From an uncultured Sphaerobacteraceae bacterium (GTDB taxonomy: Bacteria > Chloroflexota > Chloroflexia > Thermomicrobiales > UBA6265), in assembly GCA_964371945.1 (NCBI GenBank), contig CAYJPA010000014.1, forward strand, positions 6,492-70,491: a stretch of DNA of 64,000 nucleotides. Reading direction: 5' to 3'. Both the position numbers and the translations under genes were made by a program. This document shows positions 1,042 to 49,337 of the stretch, in pieces. The notes under the pieces were generated by a model. The model was not told the origin of the DNA, made no database searches, and worked only from the letters and a program-made list of their open reading frames with translations. The first letter of the stretch is position 1. Each line of letters begins with the position of its first letter.

Positions 1042-2540
1042 CGCATCGCGTTGCCGCCGCCCAGATCTCGCACGAAACCAACGTCTTCAGCGTCGTCAAA
1101 ACCGATCTGACGGCGTTCGAGCGATCCGGGCTCGCGTACGGTCCTTCGATCGTCGATCGGGAGCGGGGCACCAATTCGGCGTTCGGAGGATTCGTCGAGG
1201 GGGCGGAAGCGAACGGCTTCGAATTGATCCCAATCATGTCGGTCTGGGCGACGCCATCCGGCGCGGTCACGGGTGATGCGATTCGGAAGCTCGTCTCGGA
1301 TCTGCAACATGGGCTCCGAGCGAGCGACAGGCTCGACGGGGTTCTGCTGGCGCTTCACGGCGCGATGGTGTCGGAGATCGACGACGACGGCGACGGTTTC
1401 ATCCTCGAGTCCGTGCGCGAGGTCGTCGGGCCAGCGATCCCGGTCATCTGCACACTCGATCTGCACGCGAACATCACCGAGCGGATGGTCAGGGCGGCGA
1501 CGGTGTTGATCGGATACGACACGTATCCCCATGTCGATATGGCCGTGAGGGCCCGCGAGGCCGCCGATTTGCTTGTTCGAGTTATCGCCGGTGACGTGCG
1601 CCCGGTCAGCGCGTTCGTGAAACCGCCGATGGCCCCGACTTCTCAGAACATGATCACGGACCGCGATCCGATGAGATCACTCGTCGCGCTCGCGCATGGG
1701 ATGGAAAAGCAACGGCATGTCCTGAACGTGACATTGTCGTGTGGTTTCCCACCGTCCGATGTGTTCGACACCGGCGTAACGACTCTCGTGACAACCGACA
1801 ATGACCCCGATCTCGCCGCGCAATTGGCGCACGAATTGGCGTTGCAAACCTGGGTGTCACGCGACGGGTTCCTGGGCGGCGTGACATCATTCGAGGAAGC
1901 AGCCGAGATTCTTCGCCGGCTTCCCGCCCGACCGGAGAAGCCGCTGGTTCTGGTCGATATCGGTGACAACCCCTGGAGTGGATCGCCGGGTGACAGCGCG
2001 GAGATCTTGCGGTTCCTACTTGAACTAGAGACAGAAAACGCTGCGGTGGCGATGGTGGTTGATCCCCAATCGGTCGAACGGTGCATAGAGGCGGGCGTTG
2101 GGTCGTGGGTCGATCTTCAGCTCGGCGGCAAAACCGACAGGCTACACGGTGATCCCCTCCCCCTCCACGGGTATGTCCGCTTGATCTCTGACGGACGTTA
2201 TGTCAACTCTGGACCGATGATGGCGGGCCTGCCGGTCGATCTGGGTCCCACGGTGGTGCTGGAATGCGGCGATCGGCGCGGGCCCGAGGTGCTGATCACG
2301 AGTTATGCGGAAACGCCGATCGATCTCAATGTCTTCCGCGCTCATGGTATCGAGCCCACGGCGAAGCGGGTCATCGGTCTGAAAGGCAAAGGGCATTTCC
2401 GGGCGGCGTTCGAACCGATCGCGGAACGAGTGGTGCTCGTCGAAGGACCGGGGATCTCCGGATCGGATTTCCGGCGATTGCCCTTCAAGCACATACGCCG
2501 GCCGATCTGGCCGCTTGATACAGGAGTCACCTTTGGTTGA
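1038..2540 (+). CDS. M81 family metallopeptidase (MlrC-like)
   Basis: SHETNVF, LALHGAM, LDLHAN, YDTYPHVD, DIGDNP, KGKGHFRAAF and RRPIWPLD motifs; GTGA overlap with upstream gene. Confidence 0.92.
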   Translation: MTHRVAAAQISHETNVFSVVKTDLTAFERSGLAYGPSIVDRERGTNSAFGGFVEGAEANGFELIPIMSVWATPSGAVTGDAIRKLVSDLQHGLRASDRLDGVLLALHGAMVSEIDDDGDGFILESVREVVGPAIPVICTLDLHANITERMVRAATVLIGYDTYPHVDMAVRAREAADLLVRVIAGDVRPVSAFVKPPMAPTSQNMITDRDPMRSLVALAHGMEKQRHVLNVTLSCGFPPSDVFDTGVTTLVTTDNDPDLAAQLAHELALQTWVSRDGFLGGVTSFEEAAEILRRLPARPEKPLVLVDIGDNPWSGSPGDSAEILRFLLELETENAAVAMVVDPQSVERCIEAGVGSWVDLQLGGKTDRLHGDPLPLHGYVRLISDGRYVNSGPMMAGLPVDLGPTVVLECGDRRGPEVLITSYAETPIDLNVFRAHGIEPTAKRVIGLKGKGHFRAAFEPIAERVVLVEGPGISGSDFRRLPFKHIRRPIWPLDTGVTFG

Positions 2541-46831: not shown

Positions 46832-47086
46832 CTAGCTGCCCGATCCGACCGACTGGTGCTCTTTTTCATCGACGACATCACGGATACGGCGCATTGCCAG
46901 CACCGGCACAAACGTTGTGACTTTGATCGAATCCCGCCAGAGCTCCCGCACCGCCTGATGCGCGACGTCCTCAAGAAAGGCTTCATCGGCAACGCCGTCA
47001 AATGCCCGTTTCGCGTCGATGACGATTCTACGTGTTACCGCGTCTTCGGTCTTGAGCGCGTCTTTGTTGCCAAGGAGCGTGTCCAT
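46832..47086 (-). CDS. Small three-helix-bundle (DUF3562-like) protein
   Basis: AVRELWRDSIKVTTFVPVLAMRRIRD resembles the A(R/K)VxxFVPLLA motif; GAGGGG SD. Confidence 0.65.
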   Translation of the reverse strand: MDTLLGNKDALKTEDAVTRRIVIDAKRAFDGVADEAFLEDVAHQAVRELWRDSIKVTTFVPVLAMRRIRDVVDEKEHQSVGSGS

Positions 47087-47265
47087 CGTCACCCCTCGAC
47101 CCAGCGCCACGGGGAACTTGCGCTCCCCTCAGCGGTCAGGTCCATTCTATGTCAACCCAAGCTCGAAATCGTTAACGCTGTTCCCGAAGCCCCACGCCGG
47201 GGACAATCGACCGGATCGACCATCGCAATGGTGCGCGTCCGGACACCCCAAAATCGAACCTTGAT

Positions 47266-47343: not shown

Positions 47344-47793
47344 TCATCTAGACGGCTTATCCGTTTTTGGGTCCATCATCTGCTCGGCTCGAAGTTGCGG
47401 GCCAGGCGCGACGCGAAAGACCAGTCTTGACAACTCCTCTTCCTCGACCTTGGTCCTTATCACGAATGTTCCAAGCGCTTCAAACGTATGATTGATATTT
47501 ACTGCAAGCATTAAACGTTGCGACTGACCTGGCGTGCTGCCAGGGGGCCGCCCAACCTCCAGTTCAGCGGTGAGCGTCGCAATCAATTTCTCGTCTTCAG
47601 TGCTGAATTCAATCTCGACATTGTGTCGATAGTTTGTTTCGTTCCATTCCACAAGAAACGAGGTGGCGATGGCGAAATTCTGGGAGTGCGGAAGAGAATT
47701 GACGACAAGGTTGTCCCACCCCCCGCCCATGGTATAAAGCTTACCATTCAGAACTTCTGCGTAATCCGCTACGAGAATCCATTCAGTCCGCAT
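47344..47793 (-). CDS. DUF6941-like beta-rich protein
   Basis: ILVADYAEVLNGKLYTMGGGWD N-terminal motif; alternating beta-strand pattern. Confidence 0.7.
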   Translation of the reverse strand: MRTEWILVADYAEVLNGKLYTMGGGWDNLVVNSLPHSQNFAIATSFLVEWNETNYRHNVEIEFSTEDEKLIATLTAELEVGRPPGSTPGQSQRLMLAVNINHTFEALGTFVIRTKVEEEELSRLVFRVAPGPQLRAEQMMDPKTDKPSR

Positions 47794-47812
47794 GACGTGC
47801 GTAGCCTTTCGT

Positions 47813-47838
47813 ACTACAAGTACACTACAATTTGTAGT
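47813..47838. promoter_or_regulatory. Operator-like repeat in the divergent promoter of the TA islet
   Basis: ACTACAA at 47813 and palindrome ACTACAA-T-TTGTAGT at 47824-38, overlapping -10-like TACACT/TACAAT. Confidence 0.6.
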
Positions 47839-47862
47839 TGATCTTATGGGGAGTTTGGACGA

Positions 47863-48137
47863 GTGTCAAGGGTTACCGTTGAGGGCCTTACAATCGATGA
47901 TGTGAACGAGGATAAGTTTTGGGCTCATGGCATTCTGGCCGAACAGTCTTGCGGCTTCTGGACTTTGTTCATACGATAAAGAAGAATCGGAGCCGCCGCC
48001 GGGCATCGCATCTTCTCATCGGACGAGACCGGCAAGGAAGATGCATTGCAGTACCGATCGAAAGGACACCGATCGGAACGATCTGGCGTCCAGTGACCGC
48101 CTGGTACTGCAAGAGTCACGAAGAGTCTTGGCTATGA
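47863..48137 (+). pseudogene. BrnT-like toxin with a -1 frameshift at 47946 (pseudogene or sequence error)
   Basis: GGGGAG SD then GTG: MSRVTVEGLTIDDVNEDKFWAHGILAEQ joins VLRLLDFVHTIKKNRSRRRASHLLIGRDRQGRCIAVPIE..WRPVTAW if one G is added. Confidence 0.65.
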
Positions 48138-48153
48138 GCGAAGGAGGCATTAA

Positions 48154-48498
48154 GTGAGTGACGCAGAACTGAAAGAGCTACAAAGTCCCGAAACATGGGA
48201 GCACACGGCTGAAGACAGGCGTGAGCCGGTTAGGTCGCCTCGCGCCATTGTGTCGGTAGCTTTATCAAGAGACGACTTTGAATTCGTGTCCGCCGCCGCC
48301 CGGAGCATGGAAATGAGAACGTCTGAATTCATCCGCGTTGCAGCGGTCGAAAAGGCTCAAATCCACTCCAGGCGTGCGACCGTCATTTCAGCCTCTGGAA
48401 GCTTAGAGGTACGCACGCCTTACCCTGTAACCCACCTCCGTGGATCTAGAGTGCAGCTTGAGTCTGACCCCAAACTTGTGATGGTAGGCAAATTGTAA
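48154..48498 (+). CDS. Putative RHH/CopG-like antitoxin with a C-terminal extension
   Basis: AGGAGG SD; IVSVALSRDDFEFVSAAARSMEMRTSEFIRVAA ribbon-helix-helix pattern; follows the toxin-like gene. Confidence 0.7.
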   Translation: MSDAELKELQSPETWEHTAEDRREPVRSPRAIVSVALSRDDFEFVSAAARSMEMRTSEFIRVAAVEKAQIHSRRATVISASGSLEVRTPYPVTHLRGSRVQLESDPKLVMVGKL

Positions 48499-49337
48499 GA
48501 CATGTGGCGGCAGCCGGGGCGCAATTACTTGTCCGATGCCAGTCCTCGACTCGTTTGGAGTTTGTCTGGACTTTCTCTCGAACGCCAGCACCAGCCCCGG
48601 AGTGATAGTCGTCAGCATTCCCAATAACACCACGTTTGCTTTTGGCGTCTCTGGAATTACCTTGACGCGTTCAAAGCACAAATCACTTCAAACACGTGAT
48701 ATCCGTCTTCAACCACGCTGACAGACTCATCAACTCAGTTCTTTCTAACCTCGATGTCGAACGCGCCCAGTGCAACGAAAACGGCGTTGATGATCCTGGC
48801 GGAATTCATCGCCGGGTCGAATCTGAATTCGACAGAGATGTCTTCGTCGAGTGCGAAAGAGGTGGGAATGTGTGCTCGCGAAGAGTCCACGGATGACCCA
48901 AATGGGGTACTCACCGTGCACCGGCATGTCGATATCGTTTGGTTTGGTCAATCACATCGTTCTCATATGCACAACGATGATCACGAATTCCGCGTCGCTC
49001 CTTGGCATCCATTATGATTAGCTACTGCCCATCGACTGGGCACACCAGTTCGTCCGGCGGTGATGACCATGCACGGCGTCGACCAGTCCTTCAACTTCAA
49101 TTCTTCGCCGTATCGCAATCGGCGCGAAGGCATCAACGCCGGCCCAGGCGTGATTTTTCCGCCTGCGACCTATCCCCGCCACGACGCATGCGAGGCGTGG
49201 CGCTTCTCGTGGCTCGCAAGCGGCGTCGATCCTCCCTCGAAACTTTCCTAAAGCACATCGTCGGTTGTCGGACGAGTCGGGTCAATTGATTTCCCGCGTC
49301 TCGAGCTGGCTATTCAGTTTTGCGAGAAGGGTTCAAC

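Follow-up and report, generated by a model that had tools for sequence, protein, structure and literature searches.

A DUF6941 gene, a BrnT-like toxin gene and the gene of an RHH antitoxin with a long C-terminal tail stand side by side in the DNA studied here and in its relatives, and this three-gene arrangement is far beyond chance. The genes form a conserved module, whose probable mode of action we read from gene context. By analogy with the toxin-antitoxin-chaperone (TAC) systems, we think it fairly probable that the module is TAC-like; that is, DUF6941 would be a non-SecB chaperone that stabilises the antitoxin through its tail.

In PMC5105189 and bioRxiv 2024.02.24.581848, the TAC systems described (HigB1-HigA1-SecB(TA), Rv1955-1957, of M. 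tuberculosis; HigBAC, CmdTAC and MqsRAC of E. coli; and HicAB-TAC) all have a SecB-like chaperone, which is the sensor in phage defence. According to PMC5105189, these systems were originally defined by a variable antitoxin extension and a third gene across unrelated toxin-antitoxin (TA) families, and the chaperone-addiction element (ChAD) of M. tuberculosis HigA1 is likewise variable and lengthens the C-terminus by about 45 aa. The preprint bioRxiv 10.1101/2024.02.24.581848 adds that the chaperone stabilises the antitoxin, that phage proteins compete for the chaperone, and that SecB-type ChADs depend on aromatics.

Outside subscription journals and supplements, the literature search turned up nothing that mentions DUF6941 or PF22091 by name, and nothing on TAC chaperones other than SecB or on TAC in Chloroflexota; the supplementary neighbourhood tables of bioRxiv 2024.02.24.581848 and PMC13069673 could hold such loci under other names. 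If our reading is true, a structurally unrelated protein does the job of SecB, and chaperone addiction evolved twice. It would also provide a first testable function for the large DUF6941 family, a hint of what replaces SecB in phyla without SecB, and a new class of candidate sensors.

The locus, its toxin and its antitoxin

The window, that is, the whole stretch of 64,000 nucleotides that was analysed, carries the three genes in an islet which is richer in AT, as the original prediction had said: its GC is 0.52, that of the genome is 0.597, and only 1.0% of 1155-nt stretches of the genome are equally low. The islet is flanked by a polyphosphate kinase gene on one side and a class-III aminotransferase gene on the other, and no insertion-boundary repeats stood out around it. 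Pfam and sequence inspection gave no credible gene in the 820 bp that lie 3' of the antitoxin (48499-49319, GC 0.547). A 92-aa ORF without a Pfam match is located between DUF6941 and the polyphosphate kinase gene (46832-47110, minus strand). The named relatives are Chloroflexota throughout, and the nearest are Thermomicrobiales/Thermomicrobia.

A 149-aa DUF6941-like gene had been described as diverging from a toxin-like and an RHH-like gene across a 69-bp spacer, and this arrangement is present. The DUF6941 gene (47344-47793, minus strand), whose product is the candidate non-SecB chaperone and tail-binding partner, matches PF22091 in Pfam with an E value of 3e-20 (73 bits, with the cut-off at 27). 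It was the sole match to the family in a profile search of the 5.4-Mb genome. The spacer occupies 47794-47862 when the toxin start is placed at the GTG at 47863.

Two overlapping divergent promoters can be read in this spacer. The sigma-70-type promoter for DUF6941, TTGACA-17-TAAGAT (47841-47869, minus strand), matches 10/12 positions in the promoter scan, which found 1 site against 1.2 by chance. Its -35 box overlaps the toxin start, and this overlap of TTGACA recurs in most homologues. The toxin-antitoxin promoter, ATGACG-17-TACAAG (47792-47820, plus strand), was not called by the scan; we infer it because TTGACA-17-TACAAT stands at the same place in homologues, e.g., L046 and L062. Its -35 box overlaps the DUF6941 start codon, and in many loci the start of each gene overlaps the -35 box of the opposite promoter. 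CTACA/TGTAG repeats lie at 47814, 47825 and 47833. Of the 47 non-identical spacers of homologues, 42 contain TGTA[AG]T, where shuffled sequence gives 5.1. The repeats are likely an operator, through which the RHH protein would repress both promoters.

The toxin gene (47863-48137, plus strand) is frameshifted. Compared with the family profile, which was built from 17 rows (15 intact homologues and the two pieces from the window), frame 1 covers profile positions 2-28 and meets a stop at 47977-47979, and frame 3 covers positions 27-91 and ends at 48137. The frame switches near 47940-47946. Logan contigs from four samples of one study, two of which are possibly the source of the window DNA, each span the frameshift and show no indel relative to the window. 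Because the frameshift is identical in these four assemblies of one study, the copy is probably a pseudogene, and an error of a single assembly is unlikely. A programmed frameshift is also unlikely, since intact copies predominate and broken relatives break at other sites; the toxins of L227 and L244, for example, break at profile positions 59/60. Among 72 loci with an adjacent DUF6941, 49 have an intact toxin and 8 a split or partial one, and in the other 15 no toxin was detected. The genome of the window also carries a second, intact pair of a BrnT-like toxin and an RHH protein (G000:C1:76861-77411, corresponding to L222:1486-2036).

The original prediction had called the toxin BrnT-like, and modelling of an intact homologue, L032, bears this out. 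The model was confident (pLDDT 93) and resembled 7vd7 (Z 10.4, rmsd 3.1, 86 aligned) and Brucella BrnT 3u97 (Z 8.2, rmsd 2.8, 74 aligned); the row after these two reached Z 6.8. The toxin family is predicted, on this homologue, to have a BrnT-like (BECR) fold. By sequence, 11 of the 17 alignment rows matched PF04365 with a best E value of 0.0014, all below the curated cut-off, and 7 of the 17 also matched DUF4258. A more distant DUF6941-linked toxin, L023, clears the PF04365 cut-off. The family profile gave nothing significant against PDB sequences and did not reach BrnT.

The antitoxin ORF (48154-48498, plus strand) encodes 114 aa. Its RHH core gave weak Pfam matches to DUF6290/NikA, and the antitoxin family profile found NikA 2ba3 and MazE6 7wj0 in the PDB at E values of about 0.007-0.008. 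The first part of the gene (48154-48357) encodes an acidic N-terminal portion with a conserved Trp, which is the putative toxin-binding region, and the RHH core (about 48241-48357). The remaining part (48358-48498) encodes the C-terminal tail and the stop codon. About 45 extra residues had been claimed; we count 46 after the RHH core, and the tail sequence quoted at that time is correct to the letter. The tail resembles known ChAD elements, co-occurs with DUF6941 and is a candidate chaperone-addiction element.

In 59 aligned antitoxin homologues, the tail is 33-55 residues long, mostly 42-47, and the mean pairwise identity is 0.15 in the tail vs 0.59 in the core. S/T and G/P are frequent in the tails, and charged residues are scarce. 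Aromatics make up 6% of the tails and 6% of the rest of the antitoxin, and the window tail has one. In 32 of the 59, Thr is the last residue but one. In a toxin-less Dehalococcoidia clade, the N-terminal part of the antitoxin drifts or degenerates, and the dN/dS values are 0.04 for the core, 0.12 for the tail and 0.03 for DUF6941 (10 and 5 sequences, with high synonymous divergence). Since the tail is under purifying selection in a clade without the toxin, it should have a job that is independent of the toxin.

The locus resembles BrnTA of Brucella abortus (3u97) and the Salmonella TA complex 7vd7 in its toxin-first order, in the BECR/BrnT fold of the toxin (in the homologue model) and in its RHH antitoxin. 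It differs from BrnTA in that the toxin is below the PF04365 cut-off, the window toxin is frameshifted and a third gene is present. In addition, 46 residues follow the RHH core here, whereas the RHH of BrnA is located at the C-terminus according to PMC11980606.

Predicted fold and relatives of DUF6941

The alignment-based AlphaFold2 model of DUF6941 (pLDDT 93.6) has 10 strands and one C-terminal helix, and the protein is predicted to be an Ig-like beta-sandwich. In the VIA fold search, its best matches were the Ig-like domain of AlkC (5vi0; Z 10.1, rmsd 2.3, 100 aligned) and the carbohydrate-binding domain of Wzt (6o14; Z 9.6, rmsd 2.4, 102 aligned). Foldseek neighbours include PDE6D/UNC119 with E values of about 3e-4 to 2e-3, and uncharacterised phage proteins with a TM of 0.7 are also among the fold neighbours. 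DUF6941 thus shares its overall fold with these Ig-like binders but differs in sequence; because about 10% of residues are identical and a large number of unrelated Ig domains tie within 1 Z unit, no function is transferable from the fold.

SecB has an alpha/beta fold. For DUF6941, Pfam at E values up to 1 gives PF22091 alone, and so no SecB (PF02556); no NCBIfam family was matched. SecB entries are absent from the listed fold matches, an absence which excludes no fold. The DUF6941 profile found nothing significant among PDB sequences, and an Atlas feature search with a homologue (P0018) returned DUF6941 clusters alone. In total, 7,641 clusters at 50% identity match the DUF6941 profile at E values up to 0.001. 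DUF6941 is present in 166 of 401 genomes of the phylum, and SecB exceeded the cut-off in none of 151 phylum genomes, with one weak match. One protein of 2675 aa (P0099) contains 16 stretches that match the DUF6941 profile and is possibly a repeat protein of the same fold.

We predicted the complex of DUF6941 (residues 1-135) with the tail (residues 66-114). The scores, obtained without controls, were 0.12, 0.40 and 0.26 against a mark of 0.32, and the result is evidence neither way.

With regard to mobile elements, tblastn with DUF6941 gave no phage matches (query L021) and no plasmid matches (window query), and the viral contigs contained no relative of the window DUF6941 or antitoxin. PADLOC and PHROGs gave no match for the window proteins or for two toxin homologues. 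In Anoxybacillus phage A403 (L327:35864-36822), a DUF6941 gene over the PF22091 cut-off is coupled to a gene for a 184-aa protein next to the integrase, in the lysogeny region. This 184-aa protein has an N-terminal extension, a coiled coil and a hydrophobic C-terminus.

Linkage of DUF6941 to toxin-antitoxin genes and to the tail

An antitoxin-based search gave 75 metagenome loci and 23 genome loci, near-duplicates and kin included. In 57 of the metagenome loci, DUF6941 was visible or at least 560 nt of upstream sequence was present, and the other 18 were too short to judge. A divergent DUF6941 adjoins the toxin-antitoxin genes in 54 of these 57 loci, and two of the three exceptions, L094 and L101, have no tail. 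The genome loci are all from Chloroflexota (23/23), and DUF6941 is adjacent in 18 of the 23. The other five are tailed without an adjacent DUF6941. Three of the five genomes carry DUF6941 elsewhere; two gave no DUF6941 match, and both of these are incomplete and have partial toxins.

In two Thermomicrobiales loci (L226:1972-2649 and L228:1974-2561, both on the minus strand), the divergent slot holds another gene of 195-225 aa that has no Pfam family. This gene faces an intact toxin and a tailed antitoxin, and it is a possible third type of partner. It may resemble GvpU-like proteins.

We also searched the 401 phylum genomes with the toxin profile, a search in which loci were not chosen on the tail or on DUF6941. 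It gave 58 matches in 43 genomes. We inspected 56 loci and kept 52, the window among them; we dropped L258 because it lies at a contig end, L270 and L294 because their RHH core was not significant, and L293 because it has 135 nt of upstream sequence, and L288 was counted as DUF6941-positive on a match with an E value of 3e-25. A tail of 41-86 residues (median about 50) was present in all 24 loci with an adjacent DUF6941. In the 28 loci without it, the tail was 0-24 residues in 23 and 37-73 in five. With a threshold of 30 residues, which was chosen after the bimodal spread was seen, the Fisher p value for tail against DUF6941 adjacency is 3e-10, uncorrected for kinship. The tail had been expected to co-occur with DUF6941, and these counts agree with that expectation. 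The genome contains its own internal control: on contig C1, the intact paralogous pair lacks DUF6941, and its tail is 16 residues long.

A quick phylogeny by IQ-TREE shows 9 and 7 changes of the two traits, and in no independent pair do they go opposite ways. Short-tailed sisters without DUF6941 stand beside tailed, DUF6941-positive rows at several places in the tree (L277/L281, L261/L262, L288/L283, and the window clade vs L222/L285/L275). A phylogenetically independent-pairs test on 3-4 pairs on starred branches was not significant (median p 0.5, none opposite), and with so few pairs it is unable to reach significance. That is, the tree-corrected test points in the same direction as the raw counts and is underpowered.

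Starting from DUF6941 itself, we examined 145 loci from 150 listed matches of 207, and the Pfam scan of their neighbours covered 300 of the 972 candidate ORFs. A TA gene with Pfam or HMM support adjoins DUF6941 in 22 of the 145 loci (15%), or in 27 with calls by eye. A rough expectation, based on 117 hits to four TA families in 18.6 Mb of five genomes, is about 1.2% per locus and 2.9% in the richest genome. The enrichment beside TA genes that the original prediction anticipated is therefore found in Chloroflexota, the one phylum from which all TA-linkage data for DUF6941 come. The 22 loci comprise BrnT/RHH (10), ParE/YafQ (6), HicB (4) and PIN (2), and the PIN pairs (L007 and L013) look incidental. 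The TA-linked copies span 18 genus codes and toxins of widely differing sequence. Most BrnT-type loci are divergent, and same-strand layouts occur in L271, L277, L209, L021 and L113.

All four HicB proteins adjacent to DUF6941 (L021, L113, L194 and L209) have an extra C-terminal tail, and L209 shows the classic order of antitoxin, tail and third gene. Among the ORFs displayed for 20 HicB loci of five genomes, a tail was present only in the two that are adjacent to DUF6941; the remaining ones are larger fusions or stop where the HicB or RHH domain does. Where ParE/YafQ pairs lie downstream of DUF6941, small genes seem by eye to be extended N-terminally. Genes of 75-83 aa without a Pfam match lie directly downstream of DUF6941 in L008, L010, L014, L018 and L024 (about 1210-1480, minus strand), ahead of ParE/YafQ in L010, L014 and L024. 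They have S/T/I-rich N-terminal extensions, which are candidate addiction tails.

About 80% of DUF6941 genes have no adjacent TA gene. Their contexts include murA, uvrA and leuS (named by eye) and HSP20/SixA neighbourhoods, and the DUF6941 tree shows family-specific clades in such fixed contexts together with patchy TA-linked copies. In seven loci of one family (L133, L136, L137, L143, L145, L149 and L164), DUF6941 is the last gene of a run of HSP20, histidine-phosphatase and DUF6941 genes. Such a run would be in line with a proteostasis role for DUF6941.

Gene pairs that look TA-like by eye also occur beside DUF6941 in L159 (3-410, minus strand) and L213 (624-1476, plus strand), and downstream of it in L130 and L161. 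L159 weakly matches PADLOC PDC-M32A (E 1.8e-6). A CmdTA-like or GNAT identity for these four was suggested by eye only and found no Pfam or PADLOC CmdTAC support, and the four are outside the count of 22.

A proposed mechanism and its rivals

Several features of the module are those of TAC. It combines a type II TA pair with a small third gene. In its antitoxin, the DNA-binding core is conserved and the long C-terminal extension is variable, and two-component relatives have a short extension. The third gene pairs with unrelated TA families (BrnT/RHH, HicAB and ParE/YafQ) and also exists as stand-alone copies, and its clades in fixed contexts beside patchy TA-linked copies recall housekeeping and TA-dedicated SecB. 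Other features differ. The third protein, for which Pfam gives no SecB match, is predicted to be an Ig-like sandwich of the all-beta kind, and its gene is mostly divergent from shared overlapping promoters, not in the TA operon. BrnT/RHH is outside the TAC families named in the consulted passages of PMC5105189 and bioRxiv 2024.02.24.581848; the tails are S/T/G/V-rich, not aromatic/basic as in the TAC systems covered there; and some partners seem N-terminally extended. Because homology to SecB and a common operon are lacking, we do not class the module as a member of TAC, although we predict that it works alike. We favour DUF6941 as a tail-binding stabiliser because a variable antitoxin extension and a third gene recur across unrelated TA families, as in TAC.

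We propose the following. The N-terminal part of the antitoxin would neutralise the RNase toxin, and the RHH core would repress both overlapping promoters via the CTACA repeats. The S/T/G/V-rich tail would make the antitoxin unstable or aggregation-prone unless it is bound by DUF6941, probably via beta-strand addition. Misfolded or phage proteins would then titrate DUF6941, the antitoxin would be lost, the locus de-repressed and the toxin freed. The idea of DUF6941 as a non-SecB third component, which the original prediction had put forward, stands in part: the Pfam result, the Ig-like model, the enrichment beside TA genes and the link to the tail speak for it, and the predominance of non-TA copies and the broken toxin speak against it.

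The same co-occurrence of tail and DUF6941 would also fit if DUF6941 acted on the tail in the opposite sense, as an anti-antitoxin, a protease adaptor or a ligand-gated sensor that removes the repressor/antitoxin. The selection on tail, RHH and DUF6941 in toxin-less relatives would suit such a regulatory switch, the fold neighbours (the Wzt carbohydrate-binding domain, PDE6D and UNC119) are ligand-binding Ig sandwiches, and the frequent penultimate Thr could be a degron. We nevertheless regard this reading as unlikely. Tails without an adjacent DUF6941 are a minority, with partial toxins in two of the five genome cases, and a protective role fits this somewhat better; the sole known precedent for a variable antitoxin tail with a third gene is stabilisation (PMC5105189). 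Slightly less likely still, in our view, is that DUF6941 is a co-regulated stress-protein cargo under the RHH repressor and never contacts the tail, which would have its own job in oligomerisation, as a degron or with another host factor. The conserved overlapping promoters and repeats, the many non-TA contexts and the different gene in the divergent slot of L226/L228 are all compatible with a cargo. A cargo, however, leaves unexplained why every DUF6941-adjacent antitoxin of the toxin-based search is tailed while close sisters without DUF6941 are untailed, and why HicB proteins gained tails beside DUF6941.

Simple hitch-hiking, in which a single encounter of DUF6941 with a tailed brnTA pair in an island rich in TA genes was followed by joint inheritance, appears very improbable to us. 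The non-significant independent-pairs test, the single phylum that supplies all TA data, and the clustering of TA genes, with PIN pairs that look incidental, would agree with it. The linkage nevertheless extends over very different toxins, 18 genus codes and several unrelated TA families, it occurs in both divergent and same-strand layouts (L271, L277, L209 and L021), and the tail is under purifying selection. Against the TAC-like reading itself we count the tails without an adjacent DUF6941 (5/28 toxin-found and 5/23 genome loci), the partner swap in L226/L228, the roughly 80% of DUF6941 genes in non-TA contexts, and the divergent position outside the operon. We also count against it the tails that are not enriched in aromatics, the viral contigs without relatives, the restriction to one phylum and the non-significant tree test.

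Taking the TAC-like reading further, we suggest tentatively that DUF6941 is a family of Ig-fold holdase chaperones which replace SecB in lineages that lack it. Beside housekeeping copies, TA-dedicated ones would addict BrnT/RHH, HicAB and ParE/YafQ via C- or N-terminal tails, and would form a second, convergent class of chaperone-based stress and phage sensors.

In the present genome, the toxin arm is probably dead, and what is left would be a feedback pair of DUF6941 and the repressor, as in the toxin-less relatives. Those relatives, the Dehalococcoidia loci L088-L099, L243 and L245-L247, have DUF6941 and a tailed RHH protein, with an 88-nt spacer in which the promoter motifs are kept. Their pair is possibly a domesticated stress switch.
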